Notes: generated by a model from the letters alone, not told the origin. Positions 13,691 to 63,382 are shown, numbered from the stretch's first letter. The stretch: DNA of 64,000 nt from Candidatus Nanoarchaeia archaeon (GCA_028716945.1 JAQUOT010000001.1:187927-251926); one strand, 5' to 3'. Translations and numbers: made by a program.

Positions 13691-14782
13691 TTATTTAATA
13701 GGATATCTAAGTATAGCTGCTACTCCACCGATATCTTTTAGCTGTACCCCTTCTCTTGATTCTGTAGAAATCATTCTTACTTCGGTTTTGTATTTTTCTG
13801 CTTCTTCTTCAAGTTCTTCTATTTGTTTATCTGGAAGATTTTCAGATAATAATAAAACATCTACTGCACCCAAAGCCAAAGCTTTTTTGGTTTCAATTAA
13901 TCCATAAGTTGTTTTTTCTTCTTCCCTTGCTAATTTTTCGAAAAACTTTTGCATAATCTCTTTTTCTACAGTTATTTCTTCTTCTGCAAGAACTTCGTGA
14001 CTTCTTTCAACTAAATCATGTAATCCAGATTCTCCAGTATAAGATAAATCTTTTACAGCAATTATTTTTTTTCTTATTTCAGTTAATAAATAATTTCCAT
14101 CTACAAATTCTTGTTTTGTAGTACCAGGTCCACCAATTAATACTCCTTTTAAATCTGGTTTATTAAAAAATTCTTTGTTTGCAAATTCTGCAACCCTTTT
14201 ATAAAATTCGTGAGCTGCTTCTTCTCTTAAACGAGCATATCTTTGTTGTGAGAATCCACCTGTTTTTACTTTTCCTGGAACACCCGAAGTCATTGTAACT
14301 AGATTCTTAATATTTGTTCCTCTCAATAATCCAACATTGGCCTCTCTTTTATCAAGAACAATTAAACCAAATGTTTCTTTGATATTAATCATGTCTATCA
14401 AAGGTTCTAGTAAAAAAGTTTGATCACATCTATATACTCGCATGTTAATCGGTTCAGGAGGTTCTATAGACCAAACTTTAATATCAACTTTATTTTCTTT
14501 TTCAGAAGCATTTCCTGCAAAAACAGCCAATCCGTTCTCTGGAGTTCTTTTGTATAATCTTAAATGTTGTATCATCCTTTCAATAGAATCTATGACATGC
14601 ATTCTTGTTGTTTTATCTTTAATATTAGAAGCAGTTCCTTGTTCTTGAAATAAGTGATTCATAATTTTAACTAATTCATAACCTGCTGGAACATAAACAG
14701 AAACTAACTCAGTATGTCTTCCTCTAATTCCTTCTAATTCTTTTAATGTTTTCTTTAAAATATATCTTTCTTTTATATTCAT
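13691..14782 (-). CDS. prf1: Peptide chain release factor aRF1 homolog with non-canonical motifs (NIKD instead of NIKS, GGF instead of GGQ)
   Basis: 363 aa. The N-domain has GTASNIKDKTTR and YRCDQTF (YxCxxxF). The M-domain reads GVPGKVKTGGFSQQRYARLREEAAHEFY, which aligns without gaps to the usual ..GGQSxxRFxRLREE.. pattern. I re-read the codons ggt gga ttc from the DNA. Confidence 0.8.
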   Translation of the reverse strand: MNIKERYILKKTLKELEGIRGRHTELVSVYVPAGYELVKIMNHLFQEQGTASNIKDKTTRMHVIDSIERMIQHLRLYKRTPENGLAVFAGNASEKENKVDIKVWSIEPPEPINMRVYRCDQTFLLEPLIDMINIKETFGLIVLDKREANVGLLRGTNIKNLVTMTSGVPGKVKTGGFSQQRYARLREEAAHEFYKRVAEFANKEFFNKPDLKGVLIGGPGTTKQEFVDGNYLLTEIRKKIIAVKDLSYTGESGLHDLVERSHEVLAEEEITVEKEIMQKFFEKLAREEEKTTYGLIETKKALALGAVDVLLLSENLPDKQIEELEEEAEKYKTEVRMISTESREGVQLKDIGGVAAILRYPIK

Positions 14783-14783
14783 T

Positions 14784-17144
14784 TTAAAATTCTATTTTTA
14801 AGTTATCTCCAAATTTAATCTCTTTTGCATTTGTAACAGCTTTCAAATCATCAAAAAATTCTTTTATAATCTTTTCATTCTTTTTTTCTATAGTAATAAT
14901 AACAGGTTCTTTCATTGATTTGTTATTTTTAGTTTTGAATTGTCTTACTTCATTAATTATATCTAAAACTAAATCTCCATCTTTTTCTAAATCTGTGTCT
15001 TTTAACTTTTTATCATACTCTGGCCAAGAAGTTAAATGTATGCTTTCTTTTTTCTTTAAAGTTTCTTGATAAATTTCTTCTGTTATAAAAGGAGTAATTG
15101 GGCCTAACATTTTTAATAAACAGATTAAAGTCTTATGTAAAGTATATTGTGCAGACATTCTAGAATCTTTTCCTCTTTTATCTGGATTATATAATCTATC
15201 TTTAACAATTTCTAAATAATTATCACAAAATATATGCCAAAAGAAATTTTCTATTTTTTGTTTTGGTTTTGAATAAGAATAATTTTCAAAATCTTCTGTG
15301 CATTCTTTTACTAAATTATTTAGTTTTATCAATAACCATTCATCAAATTTCTCTAGTTTTTTATTTTCTTTTTCTTTGTAATCTTGTAAGTGCATTGCAA
15401 CGAATTTGGAAGCATTCCATAATTTTGTTATTAATTTTTGTCCTGTAACTAAATCTTTTTCCTGATAATCTAAATCCTCTCCCAATTTTGAACCTGCTGC
15501 CCAAAACCTCATAGCATCTGTACCAAATTTATCTAAAACTTGTTTAGGATCAATAACATTTCCTAAAGATTTAGACATTTTTTCTCCACCAATTGTAACA
15601 TAACCAGAAATTGTAATATCTTTCCAAGGAATCTCTTTTTCGTGTAAATAAGATTTAGTTATGGTATAAAATGCCCAAGTTCTTATAATATCATGTGCTT
15701 GTGGTCTAAGAGAAAATGGAATTTTTATTTTTCCATTTACTAGAGAAGAAGCAATTTGTGGTGTTAAAGAAGAAGTTGCCCAAGTATCCAAAACTTTTTC
15801 TTCTCCGTTTGCATCTTGTTTACATTTAGGACATTTCTTTTTTGTTTGTAAAGGATCTATAGGTAATTCTTTTTCTTCAGGCAAGATTATTTCTCCACAT
15901 TTTTTACATTCCCAAACCGGAATAGGAATACCAAAGTGCCTGTCTCTTGAAATAGACCAATCCCATTCTAACCCATTTACCCAATTTTCATATCTTTTAA
16001 ACATGAATTCAGGATACCATCTAACTTTCTTCCCTTGTTCAATTAATTTTTTCTTTTTATCTAATATTTTAATAAACCATTGTTTTGTTGGAAGAAGTTC
16101 TATTTCAGTTCCACATCTGTCGTGTACGTTAACTATATGACTTATTGGTTTTTGTTCAGTAATTAAATCTACATTTTTTAAATCTTCAAGAATTTGCTTT
16201 CTTGCTTCTTTTATTTTAAGCCCTTTATATTTTCCAAAGTTTAAAGTTCCATCTTGATTAAAAACTATTTTTGGAGTAAGTTTATGTTTTGTTATTGCTT
16301 GTGCATCATATTTATCTCCATAAGAACATATCATTAATACTCCTGTTCCTTTTCCTATATCTGCAGATTCGTCAGCAATTATAGGAACTTCGAAATTAAA
16401 TAAAGGAACTTTTGCTTTTTTACCAACTAAATTTTTATAACGTTCATCAGAAGGATTTACAAATACAGCAACACATGCGGGCAATAATTCTGGCCTTGTT
16501 GTTGCTATTAACAAATCTTTTCCATTTGCTTTAAATTTCAAAGTAGAAAATAAACTTTCTAAATTTTTGTCTTCTAATTCTGCTTGTGCAACAGTAGTTC
16601 TACAATCTGTACACCATAAAGTTGGAAAGTCTTTAACATAAATATCTCCTTGTTTAAACAAATCAATAAAAGATTTTTGAGAAACTTTTTGAGTTGGTTT
16701 ATCTATAGTAGAATAATATATATTAAAATCTGCACTCATTGCTATATCTTTCCAATCTTGTATAAACCCAGGAGTTTGTTCTTTTAAAGTTTTTAAACAT
16801 AATTCAATAAATGCTGCCCTAGATATAGATTTACTTTTAATATTATTTGTTTTTTCTACAAATCTTTCTGTAGGTAACCCATTATCATCTGTTCCGAAAG
16901 GATAAAATACATTTTTTCCAGACATTCTTTGGTATCTTGCTATAAAATCTTGTTGTGAATATGAAAAAGCATGACCAATGTGCATTTTACCAGAAATATA
17001 AGGAGGAGGCGTATCTATAGAATAAACTGGTTTCTTTGAATTTATATCAAACTTGTAAATCTTATTCTTTTCCCAGTATTCCTTCCACTTCTTCTCTGAT
17101 GCTTTAAAATCATAATTCTGACTTGTCATATTAATTATCTCCAA
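14784..17144 (-). CDS. valS: Valyl-tRNA synthetase
   Basis: 786 aa class I synthetase. It has DTPPPYISGKMHIGHAFSYSQQDFIARYQRMSG (archaeal ValRS-like HIGH region) and KMSKSLGN. The start may instead be the second Met at 17129. Confidence 0.8.
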   Translation of the reverse strand: MEIINMTSQNYDFKASEKKWKEYWEKNKIYKFDINSKKPVYSIDTPPPYISGKMHIGHAFSYSQQDFIARYQRMSGKNVFYPFGTDDNGLPTERFVEKTNNIKSKSISRAAFIELCLKTLKEQTPGFIQDWKDIAMSADFNIYYSTIDKPTQKVSQKSFIDLFKQGDIYVKDFPTLWCTDCRTTVAQAELEDKNLESLFSTLKFKANGKDLLIATTRPELLPACVAVFVNPSDERYKNLVGKKAKVPLFNFEVPIIADESADIGKGTGVLMICSYGDKYDAQAITKHKLTPKIVFNQDGTLNFGKYKGLKIKEARKQILEDLKNVDLITEQKPISHIVNVHDRCGTEIELLPTKQWFIKILDKKKKLIEQGKKVRWYPEFMFKRYENWVNGLEWDWSISRDRHFGIPIPVWECKKCGEIILPEEKELPIDPLQTKKKCPKCKQDANGEEKVLDTWATSSLTPQIASSLVNGKIKIPFSLRPQAHDIIRTWAFYTITKSYLHEKEIPWKDITISGYVTIGGEKMSKSLGNVIDPKQVLDKFGTDAMRFWAAGSKLGEDLDYQEKDLVTGQKLITKLWNASKFVAMHLQDYKEKENKKLEKFDEWLLIKLNNLVKECTEDFENYSYSKPKQKIENFFWHIFCDNYLEIVKDRLYNPDKRGKDSRMSAQYTLHKTLICLLKMLGPITPFITEEIYQETLKKKESIHLTSWPEYDKKLKDTDLEKDGDLVLDIINEVRQFKTKNNKSMKEPVIITIEKKNEKIIKEFFDDLKAVTNAKEIKFGDNLKIEF

Positions 17145-17188
17145 TTAGAAATATTTAAATATATTGTATTTAATTTTAAAGGTAGAAT

Positions 17189-17338
17189 GGAGCGGTAGCT
17201 CAGAAAGGTTTTGAAGTTTAAGACCTTGAGCAACCTGGGAGAGCATAGAAATATCTCAAACCACGCTGAAGCCGTGGATGAAAGGTTATACGTCTAGTAT
17301 ACCTTGCCAAATCGGGGGTTCAAATCCCCCTCGCTCCA
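17189..17338 (+). tRNA. tRNA-Phe (anticodon GAA) with three introns (17204..17233, 17245..17259, 17281..17311)
   Basis: The hand fold gives acceptor GGAGCGG/TCGCTCC plus A73. The D-arm is GCTC-AGCCTGGGA-GAGC after removal of a 30-nt insert. The anticodon arm is CCACG-CTGAAGC-CGTGG, the variable loop ATGTC, and the T-arm GGGGG-TTCAAAT-CCCCC. The spliced product is 74 nt. Each intron is bounded by a BHB-like motif with 3-nt bulges. An AT-rich TATA-like tttaaatatat lies about 30 nt upstream. Confidence 0.85.
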
Positions 17339-18026
17339 TTTTCTTTATATTTTTAATATTAGAACTTCTTATTAATTTAATAAAAGAGGAGGCATTATTA
17401 TAACCGCTTATTTGTATTTTATATTTTTCATACCTTTTATTAGTTCTTTTATCTATATAATTTTCATGTCCTACATAATGATCTATCTTTTGAATTTTAA
17501 TCCAATCAGATATTTTGTATATTAAATTTTTATCTTTTAGACCAAGATTAATAACTGGATAAAATTTATATTTTCCGTGATTCTTTTTTAAACACAAAGA
17601 ACCATCTGTATCAAAAATTCCTTTAATGAATGCTTTAGCATAAATTTTATTATCCCATATCCATCGAGGAACCTTATTTCTATAATTTATTTTTTTATAA
17701 CCTATAATATTAAGAAAAGATAATATCCCTTTAGATCTCTTTGTTAAGATTAAAGTATTAATCTTTTTCTTTTGATATAAATTCATCTTTACATTGAATA
17801 AAAACAAAACTTTATCTTTAATATAGTTTGAATAATTCCTCTCATCTTTGAGATTACTAAAAATAGAAAAAATATAATCATTGCTTCCTAAATTATAATA
17901 AACATGGCCATCTCCAGACAAAATACCTAAAAATTCTGACAAGTCTCTAGAAGAGGATTTAGGAAAAATAATTTTATTCTTAATATCTTGGTGACTTAGT
18001 TGAATATCTGATAAATCAAATTTCAT
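17286..18026 (-). CDS. LAGLIDADG family endonuclease (two-motif, free-standing), paralog A
   Basis: Track ORF 17286..18068. I chose the start MKFDLSD at 18026, matching paralog B. The two motifs are LGILSGDGHV and IKGIFDTDGSL. The last 53 nt are antisense to the tRNA-Phe 3' part. Confidence 0.8.
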   Translation of the reverse strand: MKFDLSDIQLSHQDIKNKIIFPKSSSRDLSEFLGILSGDGHVYYNLGSNDYIFSIFSNLKDERNYSNYIKDKVLFLFNVKMNLYQKKKINTLILTKRSKGILSFLNIIGYKKINYRNKVPRWIWDNKIYAKAFIKGIFDTDGSLCLKKNHGKYKFYPVINLGLKDKNLIYKISDWIKIQKIDHYVGHENYIDKRTNKRYEKYKIQISGYNNASSFIKLIRSSNIKNIKKMERGGFEPPIWQGILDV

Positions 18027-18163: not shown

Positions 18164-18676
18164 ATGCAAAATAAAAAAGGTGCAATTGAACTTTCTATGA
18201 CCACTATTATAGTTATTATTCTTGGAGTCACTTTATTGAGTTTAGGATTAATGTTTATTAAAGGAACATTTGGAAACATAACTGATATTACAGACAAAAC
18301 TTTTGATCAAGCTGATGATATAATAAAAGATTATATGGTAACTGGAACAACCAAAATGTACATTCTTGATTCAAACGTAGCAATGAAAGCAGGAACTATA
18401 AATACAATATATGTGGGTATTAAAAATCAACTAGGAAGAGATGATGAATTTTATTTGAAAGCAAAACCTGCAAATGATAAAAGCGATGTAGGTTGGTTAG
18501 AGCTTGCAACAGAACCACAAACTATAGAAGCTGGAAGTTATGCTACAATTGCTTTTTTCCTTAAAGTTCCTAAAAAAACGATTCCTGGAGAAACATATAT
18601 TTATTCTATAGAATCATATGCAAAGAGTCAAACAAAACCTTATGCTAATCAGCTTTTAACAGTTATAACAGAATAA
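18164..18676 (+). CDS. Archaeal type IV pilin-like protein (class III signal peptide)
   Basis: 170 aa. The N-terminus MQNKKGAIELSMTTIIVIILGVTLLSLGLMFI shows a basic-Gly cleavage context followed by a hydrophobic helix, as in archaeal prepilins. Confidence 0.6.
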   Translation: MQNKKGAIELSMTTIIVIILGVTLLSLGLMFIKGTFGNITDITDKTFDQADDIIKDYMVTGTTKMYILDSNVAMKAGTINTIYVGIKNQLGRDDEFYLKAKPANDKSDVGWLELATEPQTIEAGSYATIAFFLKVPKKTIPGETYIYSIESYAKSQTKPYANQLLTVITE

Positions 18677-55844: not shown

Positions 55845-55939
55845 AGCCCCTTAGTGTAGTGGCCAAATTGATTAAAAATCAAGGCTAGGCATACGAGACT
55901 CTGGATCTTGTGACGGAAGTTCGAATCTTCCAGGGGCTA
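55845..55939 (+). tRNA. tRNA-Gln (anticodon CTG) with a 22-nt D-loop intron (55867..55888)
   Basis: The acceptor is AGCCCCT/AGGGGCT (an A1-U72 pair as in archaeal tRNA-Gln) plus A73. The anticodon arm is CGAGA-CTCTGGA-TCTTG and the T-arm GGAAG-TTCGAAT-CTTCC. The BHB is GGCC|AAA|TTGA...TCAA|GGCT|AGG. The spliced D-arm is GTGT-AGTGGCCAA-GCAT, giving 73 nt. A TATA-like ctttataaat lies about 25 nt upstream. Confidence 0.85.
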
Positions 55940-55940
55940 C

Positions 55941-56013
55941 GCTCCCATAGTCTAGCGGTTAAGGATATGAGCTTCTCGAGCTCGTGACCTGGGTTCAAAT
56001 CCCAGTGGGAGCA
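55941..56013 (+). tRNA. tRNA-Glu (anticodon CTC), uninterrupted
   Basis: The acceptor is GCTCCCA/TGGGAGC plus A73. The D-arm is GTCT-AGCGGTTAA-GGAT, the anticodon arm TGAGC-TTCTCGA-GCTCG, and the T-arm CTGGG-TTCAAAT-CCCAG. Only 1 nt separates it from tRNA-Gln. Confidence 0.9.
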
Positions 56014-56861: not shown

Positions 56862-57827
56862 ATGTTAAGGTTAGAAATTCCTAAAGAAGATTTGGTAAAT
56901 CTATATGAAAAAGAGAAACTTACAACTTTTCAAATAGCGGAAAAACTTAATTGTTGTCAAGCAACAATCTGGAAAAGATTAAAAGAATATGATATAAAAA
57001 CAAGAATTTCTGGAATTGAGAGGGTTAAAATAACAAAAGAAAAACTTTTTGATTTATATATAAATAAAAAATATTCTACTTGGAAAATTGAAAAAATAAC
57101 TGAAATCCCAAGGGGAACGATACATAGAAAACTTAAAGAGTTTGGAATTCAATCAAGAGATATTTCCGACTCCCATATTATCTATGAAAAAAGAGATTTT
57201 TCTGGGGATCCTTTAGAAAAAGCTTACCTTATAGGATTTAGAATTGGGGATCTGGGAGTTAGAAAAAGAGGTGCTAAAAGTAAATTAATCTGTGTTGCTA
57301 GTGGAAGCACCATAGAAGAACAGATAATTCTAATAAAAAATTTATTTAAAAATTATGGAAAAGTTTGGATTAAAAAATCAAAAAATAATAAAATAAATGT
57401 ATATGTATACCTTAATTTATCTTTTGGTTTTTTATTAGATAAAAAGATTCCAAAAGAATTAGAAAAAAACAAAAAACTATTTTTTGCATTCCTGGGAGGA
57501 TTTACAGATGCGGAAGGGAGTATGAAATTAAATAAAAATATGGCTTATTATTCTTTAGGAAATTATGATAGTAAATTATTATTTAAGATATATAACTATC
57601 TAAATAAATATGGAATAAAATGTAATAAACCTCATTCAGATAATAGAATTGGAACTTTCAATAGTCAGGGATATAAATACAACTCAAATTATTGGACATT
57701 AAAAATTTGTAGAAAAGAAGAATTATACAAATTACTTAAAGAATTAAAACCTCACATTAAACATAAAAATAAAATAAAAGATTTAAATATAGTAGAAAAT
57801 AACCTAATCGAAAGGATTAAAAGTTAA
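56862..57827 (+). CDS. LAGLIDADG family endonuclease with two N-terminal HTH repeats
   Basis: 321 aa. A repeated HTH unit is present (LYEKEKLTTFQIAEKLNCCQATIWKRLKEYDIKTR and LYINKKYSTWKIEKITEIPRGTIHRKLKEFGIQSR). The LAGLIDADG motifs are AYLIGFRIGDLGV and AFLGGFTDAEGSM. Confidence 0.75.
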   Translation: MLRLEIPKEDLVNLYEKEKLTTFQIAEKLNCCQATIWKRLKEYDIKTRISGIERVKITKEKLFDLYINKKYSTWKIEKITEIPRGTIHRKLKEFGIQSRDISDSHIIYEKRDFSGDPLEKAYLIGFRIGDLGVRKRGAKSKLICVASGSTIEEQIILIKNLFKNYGKVWIKKSKNNKINVYVYLNLSFGFLLDKKIPKELEKNKKLFFAFLGGFTDAEGSMKLNKNMAYYSLGNYDSKLLFKIYNYLNKYGIKCNKPHSDNRIGTFNSQGYKYNSNYWTLKICRKEELYKLLKELKPHIKHKNKIKDLNIVENNLIERIKS

Positions 57828-57844
57828 AAAGATAATATATTAAC

Positions 57845-59371
57845 ATGAAAAAGTTTTACGTAACAACCCCAATATATTATGTAAATGATATAGCTAGTAT
57901 AGGCCATGCTTACACTACTTTTGCAGCAGATACCTTAGCTAGATGGCATAGATTAAAAGGAGAAGATGTTTTTTTCTTAACAGGTTTAGATGAAAACTCT
58001 CAAAAAACAGTCAAAGCAGCAGAAACTGCAGGTGTTAAAGATTTAAAAGAATATACTAATCAAATGGCTTTGAAATGGACTTCTACTTGGAAAAATCTAA
58101 ACATTTCTAATAATGGATTTATAAGAACTACTGAAGCTAAACATAAAAAATTAGTAAAAGAATTCTTTATGAAAGTGTATGAAAAAGGGGATATTTACAA
58201 AGGGAAATATGAAGGATTATATTGCGAAGGATGTGAATGTTTTTATACTGAATCAGACCTAGTAGAAGGAAAATGTCCTTTTCACAAAACAGAACCAAAG
58301 TTTATATCTGAAGAAAATTATTTTTTTAAATTAACAAAATATGCAGATAAAATATTAACTTACATAGAAAAAAATCCTGATTTTATTTTACCTAATTCCA
58401 GAAAAAATGAAGTTGTAGAATTTATTAAGATGGGATTAAAAGATATTAGTATTTCTAGACCAAATGTTGATTGGGGAATTCCCTTACCAATAGACAAAAA
58501 TCATCATTTCTGGGTATGGTTTGATGCTTTACCAAATTATATCACTGGAGCTCCAAAATATTGGCCTGCAAATTGTCATTTATTAGCAAAAGATATTTTA
58601 AGATTCCATTGCGTTATTTGGCCTGCTATGTTAATGAGTGCAGGTTATGACTTACCAAAACAATTATTTGTACATGGATTTTTAACTATTAATGGACAAA
58701 AGATGTCAAAATCTTTAGGCAATGCTATAGACCCAAATGTTTTAGCTCAAAAATATTCTGTAGATTCATTAAGATATTATTTAATGCGTAGCATTCCATT
58801 TGGAGAAGATGGAGATTTTTCAGAAAAAGCATTAATAACAAGAACAAATACAGAATTAGCAGATTCTCTGGGTAATTTATTAAATAGAGTTGTTTCTATG
58901 TGTGAAAAATATTATGATTCTAAAATACCAAAAGCAAAAGAAGACAAAGAATTAAGTTCAAAATTAGATTTTAAAAAAATTGATTCCTTAATATTAAATT
59001 ATAAGTTACATGAGGCTTTAGCAGAAATATTTTACTTTGTAGATCAATGTAATAAATATGTAAATGAAAAAGAACCTTGGAATTTAGCTAAAAATCAGAA
59101 AGAAGATGAACTTGAAAAGGTTTTATTTAATTTGGCAGAATCATTAAGAATAATTTCTCAATTAATTTATTCTTTTATGCCAGAAACAGCAGAAAAAATA
59201 AATGAACAGCTTGGATTTAAATTAAGAGATAGTTTTGACTTGAAATGGGGTAATGCAAAATCAAAAGGTATAAAAAAAGGAGAAACTTTGTTTAAAAAAA
59301 TTGGCCTAACTGATGGACTTAAAAAATCTTCAAATGATGGTTTAAAAGGGGGACCTAGAAATGGACTTTAA
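57845..59371 (+). CDS. metG: Methionyl-tRNA synthetase, catalytic core and anticodon-binding domain only
   Basis: 508 aa. It has TTPIYYVNDIASIGHAYT (HIGH-like), the CEGCECF...CPFH Zn knuckle and KMSKSLGN. It ends in a Gly/Lys-rich tail without the usual C-terminal tRNA-binding domain. Confidence 0.9.
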   Translation: MKKFYVTTPIYYVNDIASIGHAYTTFAADTLARWHRLKGEDVFFLTGLDENSQKTVKAAETAGVKDLKEYTNQMALKWTSTWKNLNISNNGFIRTTEAKHKKLVKEFFMKVYEKGDIYKGKYEGLYCEGCECFYTESDLVEGKCPFHKTEPKFISEENYFFKLTKYADKILTYIEKNPDFILPNSRKNEVVEFIKMGLKDISISRPNVDWGIPLPIDKNHHFWVWFDALPNYITGAPKYWPANCHLLAKDILRFHCVIWPAMLMSAGYDLPKQLFVHGFLTINGQKMSKSLGNAIDPNVLAQKYSVDSLRYYLMRSIPFGEDGDFSEKALITRTNTELADSLGNLLNRVVSMCEKYYDSKIPKAKEDKELSSKLDFKKIDSLILNYKLHEALAEIFYFVDQCNKYVNEKEPWNLAKNQKEDELEKVLFNLAESLRIISQLIYSFMPETAEKINEQLGFKLRDSFDLKWGNAKSKGIKKGETLFKKIGLTDGLKKSSNDGLKGGPRNGL

Positions 59372-60681: not shown

Positions 60682-60786
60682 TTTTTCCTCCTTTTATTGA
60701 GTTATATGAGAGAAATGACTCCCAACCACCTAAGAATCTAAAGGACTTTAGGTTTATAAAGATTTTTATAAGGTTTTAAAAGTATA

Positions 60787-60882
60787 TGAGCCCGCGGAGA
60801 TTTGAACTCCGGGCCCCCACCAATGATTTGGTTTAAATCCAATTTATCAGAGTGGTGCGCTACCAGGCTGCGCCACGGGCTC
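60787..60882 (-). tRNA. tRNA-Ile (anticodon GAT) with a 22-nt anticodon-loop intron (60822..60843)
   Basis: Read on the minus strand, the acceptor is GAGCCCG/CGGGCTC plus A73. The D-arm is GCGC-AGCCTGGTA-GCGC, the anticodon arm CCACT-CTGATAA-GGTGG after splicing, and the T-arm CGGAG-TTCAAAT-CTCCG. The BHB is TGAT|AAA|TTGG...CCAA|ATCA|TTG. The mature product is 74 nt. Confidence 0.85.
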
Positions 60883-60961
60883 ATGAGATATATTGTTAAA
60901 AGATAATTTATAAGGTTTTTGAATTGATAAAGTTTAAATAATATTAAATTTTAACTATCCT

Positions 60962-61673: not shown

Positions 61674-62687
61674 ATGGAAAAAAAAGAAATACTTGCACAT
61701 TTTAGTTATGGAAGTGCTATAAGAAATGCTATAGAAAAAATAACTAATGCTAATCGTGGAGTTTTAGTTGTTTTTGTTAAAGATAAGGGTATTAAAAAAA
61801 TAAGTGTTGGTGGTTTTAAAATAAATGAAGAGTTTTCTGAAGAAAGACTTGCTGAATTAGCAAAATTAGATGGAGCAATATTGGTAGATAATAAACTACA
61901 AAAAATAATTAGTGCTAATGTCTTATTAAATCCGAGTATAAAAATTCCTAGTACAGAAACAGGTACAAGACATCAAGCAGCAGAAAGAACTGCAAGACAA
62001 TTAGATACAATGGTTCTTGCTATTTCTGCAAAAACAGGAACTGCAATGGTATATCATGGAAATGGTAAATTAAAATTAAATAATTTAGGTAAAATATTCA
62101 CAAAGACTGGAGAAGCACTAAGAATTATTGAAAAGCATAGAGAATTATTTAAAGTTTTAATAAAAAAGTTTGATACTTTTGAATTATTAGAAATGGTTAC
62201 ATTAGAAGACCTTGCTTCTATATTTCAAAGAGAAAAAATAATGGATTCTGTTGCAGATATAATCTCTGTTTATTTAAGCGAATTAGGTGATGAAGGAGAA
62301 TTAACAGAATTACAATTAAAAGAAATTATAACTTATGTTCATGCAGAATTAGCTGCAATTATGGCAGATTATCATGATTATTTTAATTTTGATAAGATAA
62401 TTGAAGAATTAAAAGACTTAAAACGTGATGAAATTGTAGTTAAAGAAAACATTTTTAAAATATTCTTAGATAATAGAAAAAAAGAAGATACATTAATACC
62501 GAAAGGTTATAGAATATTAAAGAACATCCCTATTTTAACAGAAGAAAATATAAAGTTATTAATGGAAACTTTCCCAAGTTTAAAAGAATTAATTTCTGCT
62601 CAAGAAGAAGAATTAGCTGCTATCAAATCTATAGGAAATAAAAAGGCTAAAGCTATAAGAGAATATCTATTAAAAGCACAGATTTAA
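61674..62687 (+). CDS. disA: DisA-type diadenylate cyclase (DAC domain, helical linker and C-terminal HhH)
   Basis: 337 aa. The DAC motifs are LDGAILVD and ETGTRHQAAERTARQ. The layout is collinear with bacterial DisA, and the C-terminus has IKSIGNKKAKAIREYL (HhH). Confidence 0.8.
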   Translation: MEKKEILAHFSYGSAIRNAIEKITNANRGVLVVFVKDKGIKKISVGGFKINEEFSEERLAELAKLDGAILVDNKLQKIISANVLLNPSIKIPSTETGTRHQAAERTARQLDTMVLAISAKTGTAMVYHGNGKLKLNNLGKIFTKTGEALRIIEKHRELFKVLIKKFDTFELLEMVTLEDLASIFQREKIMDSVADIISVYLSELGDEGELTELQLKEIITYVHAELAAIMADYHDYFNFDKIIEELKDLKRDEIVVKENIFKIFLDNRKKEDTLIPKGYRILKNIPILTEENIKLLMETFPSLKELISAQEEELAAIKSIGNKKAKAIREYLLKAQI

Positions 62688-63382
62688 GAATTATTTCTAA
62701 AATAATAATATTTTTTCCAATGTTTGGGGTTATTAGGAGAGATAATTTTCATCCATTTATTTAACATAAATTCTCCTCTAATTGAAACCTTATATAAATC
62801 TAACCAATTATGATTTTTATGTTTATAAGAATAGATTGTAGAACGAATTCCTAATTTGTTTATTAAATTATTTAATTGTAATCCTAAAGGTTTAGAAGTG
62901 GTGCTTATCTCTAAACGAGGATATAATTTTTTATATTTTGGTTGTAAATATAAAGTTCCATCCGTATCAAAGATTCCTTTAACCACATTAATAGTATACT
63001 CCTTTCTATTTAAGAAACAAGAAGGTATACAAATATCAAATTTTTTACCAAGAGGTAATTTAAGAATTTTATTTTTAAATTCGATTAATGAATCATCCCA
63101 AATTTGAAATCCAAATACTTTTGTAGAAGGCATTTCTTTTGGTTTTATTTTTAAATCATAAACTTTTTTATATAAATCTATAATTTTATTATTATAATGT
63201 TCTTTATCATCAAACATATGCCCCCTTAAAGAATAAAGTCCTTTAGACGTATTTCCGTTTTTGTAAAAATTCATACTTCCATCTCCAATATGCAATCCTG
63301 TTTCTTCTGCTAATTCTATTATTGGTTTTTCTGGAAGTATAAGTTTAGTGCTTTGCTTAATGTCAGATAAATCAAACTTCAT
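62684..63382 (-). CDS. LAGLIDADG family endonuclease (two-motif, free-standing), paralog B
   Basis: 232 aa. It starts MKFDLSDIKQS like paralog A. The motifs are TGLHIGDGSM and VKGIFDTDGTL. Confidence 0.8.
   Translation of the reverse strand: MKFDLSDIKQSTKLILPEKPIIELAEETGLHIGDGSMNFYKNGNTSKGLYSLRGHMFDDKEHYNNKIIDLYKKVYDLKIKPKEMPSTKVFGFQIWDDSLIEFKNKILKLPLGKKFDICIPSCFLNRKEYTINVVKGIFDTDGTLYLQPKYKKLYPRLEISTTSKPLGLQLNNLINKLGIRSTIYSYKHKNHNWLDLYKVSIRGEFMLNKWMKIISPNNPKHWKKYYYFRNNS

Follow-up and report, generated by a model that had tools for sequence, protein, structure and literature searches.

Three introns in a tRNA-Phe(GAA) gene of a Nanoarchaeota/Woesearchaeota-type DPANN archaeon and a series of zero to four introns among its orthologues

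Transfer RNA (tRNA) genes with multiple introns are known from Crenarchaeota, N. equitans, M. kandleri, Korarchaeum, and ARMAN-1/2, where the stated maximum is three introns (PMC4033280, PMC8450103). Published non-canonical intron positions include 25/26 and 59/60 (PMC4090602). The subject of this report is a tRNA-Phe(GAA) gene, interrupted three times, on the plus strand of a 64,000-nucleotide stretch of DNA from a Candidatus Nanoarchaeia archaeon (GCA_028716945.1, JAQUOT010000001.1:187927-251926). The whole stretch is referred to as the window, and the gene occupies positions 17189-17338. From its sequence, it is very probably a functional gene of a Nanoarchaeota/Woesearchaeota-type member of the DPANN superphylum, with three short introns that would be spliced by proteins.

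Disrupted tRNA genes have been described in DPANN archaea before. Kaneta et al. 2018 (PMC5829648) reports that such genes, among them a multiple-intron category, are markedly increased in DPANN, including a Woesearchaeota and a Pacearchaeota genome. The same paper attributes the seeming gaps in some DPANN tRNA sets to disrupted genes that escape detection, and it reports an EndA with an L3 insert (alpha4) in Woesearchaeota and Pacearchaeota. In Sugahara et al. 2012 (PMC3293823), the number of introns varies between genomes at a tRNA locus that lies beside a mobile element.

The first-pass annotation of this DNA treated a three-intron tRNA as a novelty for a DPANN-like genome. This was overstated: PMC4033280 already names N. 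equitans and ARMAN-1/2 among the hosts of multiple-intron tRNAs, and PMC5829648 has a category of them in DPANN lineages. The three-intron tRNA-Phe is real and less novel for DPANN than first thought. Added interest comes from its context: a series of orthologues whose intron number runs from zero to four, an intron in the T-loop of several of them, and a putative homing-endonuclease family specific to tRNA-Phe.

The gene is 150 nt long and consists of four exons and three introns, all on the plus strand. Exon 1 (17189-17203) holds the acceptor 5' strand, U8 and A9, the D-stem 5' strand, and A14 and G15. It is followed by intron 1 (17204-17233; 30 nt) at position 15/16. Exon 2 (17234-17244) supplies the remaining D-loop, from C16 to A21, and the D-stem 3' strand. 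Intron 2 (17245-17259; 15 nt) lies at position 25/26. Exon 3 (17260-17280) contains A26, the anticodon arm CCACG-CUGAAGC-CGUGG with anticodon GAA, and A44, U45, and G46. Intron 3 (17281-17311; 31 nt) lies at position 46/47, and exon 4 (17312-17338) completes the gene with U47, C48, the T-arm GGGGG-UUCAAAU-CCCCC, the acceptor 3' strand, and the discriminator A73. CCA is not encoded.

Joining 17189-17203, 17234-17244, 17260-17280, and 17312-17338 gives a 74-nt product with a normal cloverleaf that ARAGORN calls as tRNA-Phe(GAA). The locus sequence had been transcribed correctly in the first-pass annotation, and intron removal returns exactly the 74-mer claimed there. In Sprinzl numbering the D-loop reads A14 G15 C16 C17 U17a G18 G19 G20 A21, which places the introns at 15/16, 25/26, and 46/47. 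The conserved positions U8, A14, G18, G19, G20, U33, G53, U54, U55, C56, A58, C61, and A73 are all read from the spliced product. The tRNA-Phe identity set of yeast and human (G20, G34, A35, A36, and A73) is present in full, as read directly from the spliced sequence.

Signals for transcription can be proposed on both sides. A candidate archaeal TATA box, TTTAAATA (17154-17161, +), was read 28 nt 5' of tRNA position 1, and the upstream flank with this box is also found in the intronless orthologue L001. An oligo-T tract, TTTTCTTT (17339-17346, +), read in the same way, begins immediately 3' of A73. The box is the putative promoter, and the tract the putative terminator.

Standard tools see this gene poorly. 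Rfam RF00005 covers the unspliced locus over its full length with a score of 31.6 bits (gathering score, 29), with the exons aligned and the introns as insertions. ARAGORN misses the unspliced gene when run on the 64-kb window. The spliced 74-mer has the same length and register as the intronless orthologues (Rfam 60-63 bits). Running ARAGORN with intron tolerance on BHB-spliced combinations (BHB, bulge-helix-bulge) gave hundreds of spurious calls, and it was replaced by intron-free calls and orthologue alignment. No Rfam intron family matched at the locus. A split or permuted tRNA gene is ruled out, as a single stretch of 150 nt holds all four exons in their normal order. A self-splicing group I intron, which spans a few hundred nt and has a ribozyme core, is ruled out by introns of 30, 15, and 31 nt.

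The intron boundaries are also given by homology. The closest relative is L001, an ENA contig, together with L002 (JBAZJB010000001.1, Candidatus Nanoarchaeia archaeon); its ValRS is 92% identical to that of the window. It has an uninterrupted 74-nt tRNA-Phe(GAA) at the syntenic site, with a shared upstream flank and collinear sequence on either side of the gene. A global alignment to L001 that is blind to structure opens three gaps, exactly at 17204-17233, 17245-17259, and 17281-17311, in agreement with the three introns, coordinates, and tRNA positions first proposed. Introns 1 and 3 can be placed in one way only in this alignment, and intron 2 slides by 1 nt (one A) with no change in the product. 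The exons differ from L001 at six positions, mostly paired stem changes in the acceptor and anticodon stems (A3-U70 versus G-C, C5-G68 versus A-U, and C28-G42 versus U-A). These changes show that each of the two evolves as a tRNA.

The host fits this comparison. The genes flanking tRNA-Phe are ValRS (14784-17129, -), eRF1, a hypothetical protein of 170 amino acids, and CysRS. The best matches of the window ValRS are named Candidatus Nanoarchaeia, Nanoarchaeota, and Woesearchaeota, which bears out the DPANN-like host proposed at first. The GC content is ~27%.

Further orthologues came from synteny look-ups and from a single metagenome scan, which targeted tRNA-Phe genes interrupted at 46/47. 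The largest intron set belongs to two 170-nt genes, L044:834-1003 (-) and L046:2025-2194 (+), with introns at 15/16 (22 nt), 25/26 (15 nt), 46/47 (29 nt), and 59/60 (30 nt). Three introns, at 25/26, 46/47, and 59/60, are found in L043, which equals L047 (GCA_018816395.1, ValRS 74%), and in L045, where they measure 21, 31, and 19 nt. L057:1041-1151 (+) (GCA_028717785.1) has a single T-loop intron at 59/60 (37 nt). The tRNA-Phe genes of L001/L002, L051, L052, L062, and L063/L064 have none. All of these orthologous genes splice to a 74-nt tRNA-Phe(GAA). Intron content changes fast among relatives, and the number of introns ranges between zero and four. A literature search, incomplete in its coverage, found no report of four-intron archaeal tRNAs.

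Introns 25/26 and 46/47 occur in five distinct genes, including that of the window and counting L043 and L047 once, and intron 15/16 occurs in three. Introns 25/26 and 46/47 are common to these orthologues and therefore predate the split between the lineages of the window, L043-46, and L045. For the nearest relative, which has no introns, the simplest explanation is that they were lost or that the allele was replaced.

Not every look-up returned a gene. ValRS synteny yielded tRNA-Phe only in L001/L002, L043 (intron-bearing), and L051 (intronless); none was present near ValRS at 13 other DPANN ValRS loci (L003-L015) or at L048-L050. Homologues of the 170-residue neighbour added L052 (intronless) and L057 (one intron), and the other homologue loci were without tRNA-Phe. 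Scans of viral contigs with tRNA-Phe intron patterns gave no match. Neither Rfam (E<=0.01) nor ARAGORN detected any of the relatives with three or four introns.

The splice sites were described with a BHB finder written for this analysis, which requires a 4-bp central helix and two 3-nt bulges and cuts after the second bulge nucleotide. Intron 1 has the central helix GCUC/GAGC (4/4 pairs), bulges AG|A and AA|C, and an inner helix of 10 bp; its class is relaxed HBh'. Intron 2 has the central helix GAGA/UCUC (4/4), bulges GC|A and AA|A, a 2-bp inner helix UA/UA closing a GAAA loop, and a 3-bp outer helix (G19-C27, G18-C28, and U17a-A29). It is a strict hBHBh'. Intron 3 is relaxed, with the central helix UGGA/GCCA, bulges UG|A and AA|U, and an inner helix of 5 bp, or 9 bp with one bulged U. 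Its outer helix reaches up to 3 bp (38-40 with 48-50) and competes with the T-stem. When the introns were shuffled with their boundaries fixed by homology, a BHB at least as good as that observed arose at P<1e-5 for intron 1, 8e-5 for intron 2, and 1.3e-3 for intron 3.

The same geometry runs through the orthologues, with the spacing of 3-nt bulges and a 4-bp helix kept in 17/17 intron instances. The covariation sample is small, with three to five distinct sequences per intron, and is given as counts without statistics. In central helix 1, one change is seen, GAGC to GAGU (G-C to G-U), and the inner helix of the 22-nt introns of L044 and L046 has a double compensatory change, G-C to A-U. Central helix 2 shows wobble changes (UCUC to UCUU); intron 2 is kept in L043, L044, L046, and L045, and its inner helix is 5 bp in L045. 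Inner helix 3 has three unrelated sequences, AAGGU(U)AUAC, AAGACA, and GAGGGUCUUU, in the window, L043-46, and L045, and all of them pair. The UUGCC(A/G)AA segment of intron 3, which makes up central helix 3 and its bulge, is conserved across orthologues. The T-loop intron at 59/60 mimics canonical anticodon-loop geometry, with the T-stem as outer helix and UUCA pairing with UGAA or UGUA.

From this anatomy, a route to the mature tRNA can be proposed. Transcription would run from the TTTAAATA box to the oligo-T tract. The pre-tRNA would fold so that each exon-intron junction forms a BHB or relaxed HBh' motif, and the splicing endonuclease EndA would cut after the second nucleotide of each 3-nt bulge. 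An RtcB-type ligase would then join the four exons, RNase P and RNase Z would trim the ends, and CCA would be added. We infer every enzymatic step from established knowledge of archaeal tRNA splicing; the sequence and the comparative anatomy are observed.

Several points weigh against this account. In the naked-RNA ensemble, the pair probability of the central helix is ~1.0 for intron 1, ~0.4 for intron 2, and ~0.002 for intron 3, where the anticodon stem competes. Central helix 3 forms 3/4 pairs, with one A.G mismatch, and 2/4 in L045. At -46.1 kcal/mol, the fold with all three BHB motifs lies ~10 kcal/mol above the minimum free energy of -55.9 kcal/mol. There is no outer helix at intron 1. 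Neither EndA nor RtcB was found among the ~45 window open reading frames (ORFs) scanned with Pfam. The BHB geometry described in the first-pass annotation was recovered by the finder, and its third motif is weaker than had been implied. Intron 3 is the weakest part of the model and would probably not be recognised unless a protein stabilises the motif or the RNA refolds stepwise.

These points bear on the alternative that survives best: that the gene is functional and that intron 3, perhaps also intron 1, is not recognised through the proposed BHB. Recognition could instead follow stepwise refolding after removal of intron 2, use a relaxed bulge-helix-loop, or take the help of another factor. 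The imperfect, rarely formed central helix 3 and the missing outer helix of intron 1 speak for it, as does the suggestion that multi-intron tRNAs may need one intron removed before the next BHB forms (tRNAscan-SE 2.0, PMC8450103). On the other hand, the orthologues keep the AA|U bulge and the 4-nt segment that pairs in central helix 3, as GCCAAA|U or GCCGAA|U, where the inner helix has fully diverged, and the cut sites given by the register of BHB 3 are exactly the boundaries defined by homology. Moreover, the outer helix of BHB 2 sequesters nucleotides 27-29 and frees 41-43 for central helix 3, so BHB 2 and BHB 3 are mutually compatible. This alternative is considered unlikely.

A decaying tRNA-Phe pseudogene with three random insertions, and a working tRNA-Phe elsewhere in the genome, is far less probable still. 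Only 64 kb of the genome is covered, so a second intact tRNA-Phe is possible; the low Rfam score, the rejection by ARAGORN, and the mobile endonuclease gene inserted at the tRNA 3' end would also suit a pseudogene. No second tRNA-Phe was found within the window by ARAGORN, Rfam, or a T-arm search, so the intact copy that was originally said to count against the locus is absent from the sole DNA covered. The window has five T-arms, one per tRNA. All four exons are intact, and the differences among orthologues are stem-preserving only. The insertions lie exactly where BHB cleavage restores a 74-nt tRNA, and intron positions with covarying helices recur in five other genomes. The promoter-like box and the oligo-T tract are intact, and the locus is the syntenic counterpart of the relatives' tRNA-Phe.

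It is scarcely credible that the interruptions stem from faulty assembly or binning, as through a chimeric contig or collapsed repeats: the source is a metagenome-assembled genome, but its flanks are collinear with L001/L002 on both sides, the LAGLIDADG ORF beside the tRNA is identical in independent Logan assemblies (P0206), the neighbouring 170-residue gene (18164-18676) is identical on a separate 536-kb contig (P0121), independently assembled relatives have the same intron positions, and the introns are not repeated elsewhere in the window.

A functional three-intron tRNA-Phe is thus the preferred reading, and two further ideas on its introns were considered. A search for the introns as dispersed repeats gave only self-matches as significant within the window. 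Intron 1 as a transposed copy of intron 3 was not adopted, as the shared AAAGGTT...ACCTTG is confined to the bulge and helix ends. The resemblance of the two introns is weaker in L044 and L046, and convergence could explain it.

The tRNA-Phe gene is accompanied by a putative LAGLIDADG homing-endonuclease gene. In comparison with L001/L002, an insertion of ~790 nt (17339 to ~18126), absent from these relatives, directly follows the tRNA and carries this gene (17286-18026, -; 246 amino acids, two motifs), which is convergent with tRNA-Phe. The gene closes with 17 codons (MERGGFEPPIWQGILDV) that are antisense to exon 4 and the end of intron 3, and its stop codon falls within tRNA intron 3. The two motifs read LGILSGDG and IKGIFDTDGS, and G38, D39, G40, D139, T140, D141, and G142 are invariant among 13 aligned sequences. 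Pfam LAGLIDADG_3 scores 20.5 bits on the window ORF, just under the cutoff of 22.5, and the homologues carry PF14528. The family profile matches the intein endonuclease domains of V-type ATPase subunit A (7qsu, 7qss), PI-PfuI (1dq3), 2dch, and I-DmoI. From its two motifs and acidic residues, the ORF is predicted to encode an I-DmoI-like LAGLIDADG homing endonuclease.

The family appears tied to tRNA-Phe. Fourteen full-length homologues, at 32-52% identity, were found, and one is named 'LAGLIDADG family homing endonuclease [Nanoarchaeota archaeon]'. Their C-termini conserve KMGxxGFEP, or DLNP in another frame. KMGxxGFEP is the antisense translation of the tRNA acceptor 3' strand and T-arm, and several homologues continue with ASA, ASV, or ELQ, the antisense of the Phe anticodon loop CTGAAG. 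In DNA, P0208 (L062:1501-2274) and P0214 (L063:1501-2232/L064) were checked and are convergent with, and overlap, an intronless tRNA-Phe(GAA). These two pairs sit in a different gene neighbourhood. At L057:396-1019 (+), a divergent LAGLIDADG_3 gene lies immediately upstream of tRNA-Phe on the same strand. No report of tRNA-associated free-standing LAGLIDADG genes in archaea was found in the literature search, whose coverage is incomplete.

Strict collaborative homing, in which the intron is present if and only if the endonuclease gene is, was rejected. In L062 and L063, the endonuclease gene accompanies a tRNA-Phe free of introns, and the introns of L043-L046 occur with no endonuclease gene next to them. 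A looser link between endonuclease and introns is possible, through gene conversion triggered by cutting or selection for introns that break the target.

Tentatively, the pattern of sequences allows the tRNA-Phe locus to be seen as the home site of a dedicated free-standing LAGLIDADG endonuclease, a possible arrangement though a doubtful one. The endonuclease gene would sit convergent to tRNA-Phe and use the antisense of the tRNA as its C-terminal tail. Breaks made by the endonuclease, followed by gene conversion, could move whole tRNA-Phe alleles, introns included, between lineages. Alternatively, introns could be retained for disrupting the endonuclease target. If true, this proposal would explain why close relatives have zero, one, three, or four introns, why introns are as conserved as exons where flanking genes diverge by 25-30%, and how four introns, above the review maximum of three, could arise.

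A related pattern is seen in L043, L044, and L046. These three share the same intron 3 and almost the same introns 2 and 4, although the adjacent region of the 170-residue gene is only 68-75% identical. The introns of these three are conserved as strongly as the exons. The high intron identity fits lateral spread of the locus, and strong constraint on the introns explains it equally well.

The window holds four other tRNA genes. tRNA-Glu(CUC) (55941-56013, +) has no intron, and tRNA-Ile(GAU) (60786-60883, -) has a canonical 22-nt intron; both are found by ARAGORN and Rfam. tRNA-Gln(CUG) (55845-55939, +) has a 22-nt D-loop intron (55867-55888) and a sub-threshold Rfam score of 26.9 bits. It ends 1 nt before the intronless tRNA-Glu(CUC), and given this spacing the two are probably co-transcribed. 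In tRNA-Asn(GUU) (63618-63489, -), which ARAGORN and Rfam miss, 35 nt are inserted in the D-loop (63601-63567) and an intron of 22 nt lies in the anticodon stem (63553-63532). Its D-loop insertion has a 4/4 central helix and hardly any inner helix, and may be two nested introns. The window total is seven introns in five tRNA genes. Some of the other window tRNAs have BHB introns at non-canonical sites, and the genome must therefore process such introns.

Other LAGLIDADG sequences were noted in the window. A LAGLIDADG_3 ORF at 62684-63382 (-) is a paralogue of the one beside tRNA-Phe (E=2e-11, with the same MKFDLSDI start) and lies downstream of the two-intron tRNA-Asn at a distance of 106 nt (63489 to 63382). 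A third LAGLIDADG_3 ORF (56862-57827, +), with N-terminal helix-turn-helix repeats, lies ~850 nt downstream of tRNA-Gln/Glu. All three LAGLIDADG ORFs of the window are within 1 kb of a tRNA locus, for which chance is put at ~0.3% by a post hoc estimate. In L048:4885-7263 (ValRS 73% identical), the eRF1 adjoining ValRS is 792 amino acids long and has an intein with a LAGLIDADG_3 domain; the window eRF1 (13691-14782) has 363 amino acids and no intein. A weak Rfam match to the C/D-box snoRNA SNORD47 at 59091-59159 (-), at 28 bits versus a gathering score of 50, lies inside an ORF of 508 amino acids (57845-59371) and is probably due to chance.

These genes matter for annotation. The tRNA-Phe of the window barely passes Rfam, and orthologues with three or four introns escape both Rfam and ARAGORN. 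The finders miss such genes, and DPANN genomes of this kind are therefore scored as lacking tRNA-Phe and, likewise, tRNA-Asn. Missed tRNAs distort completeness estimates and claims of missing tRNAs. In addition, zero to four introns at one syntenic locus, with precise presence and absence between close relatives, are a natural experiment on intron gain and loss. The series lies outside Thermoproteales, where this question has mostly been studied. The recurrent LAGLIDADG gene specific to tRNA-Phe offers a testable mechanism or selective pressure for intron turnover.

The multi-intron tRNAs of Thermoproteales (Pyrobaculum, Thermofilum, and Caldivirga; Sugahara 2008 and Fujishima 2010 via PMC4033280, PMC4090602, and PMC8450103) also have up to three short introns with BHB or relaxed BHB motifs at non-canonical positions. 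They share the rapid intron turnover between related genomes, and standard tRNA finders miss them as well. In contrast, the host here is an AT-rich (~27% GC), small-genome DPANN archaeon and not a crenarchaeote. Thermoproteales have an (alpha-beta)2 EndA with a crenarchaeal loop, whereas an alpha4 EndA with an L3 insert would be expected here by analogy with the literature. Unlike in Thermoproteales, no clear intron sequence family is common to different tRNAs, and relatives reach four introns.

The disrupted tRNAs of other DPANN archaea (N. equitans, ARMAN-1/2 with an epsilon2 EndA, and those of Kaneta et al. 2018, PMC5829648) belong to the same superphylum and represent the same phenomenon. 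The main text of PMC5829648 mentions neither a specific three-intron tRNA-Phe nor an orthologue series of zero to four introns, nor does it connect such genes with a homing endonuclease. The tRNA-Thr(GGU) of Caldiarchaeum subterraneum (PMC3293823) likewise varies in intron number between very close genomes and adjoins a mobile element. In that case, the element is a 1.8-kb recombinase unit and the tRNA is also fragmented (PMC3293823). Here, in contrast, the element is a ~0.8-kb LAGLIDADG cassette, and the exons are contiguous and in order.

With I-DmoI, I-Tsp061I, and intein-type enzymes, the window ORF shares the monomeric LAGLIDADG architecture with two motifs. Those enzymes are encoded inside rRNA introns or inteins, whereas the family of the window is free-standing, convergent with tRNA-Phe, and antisense to it.

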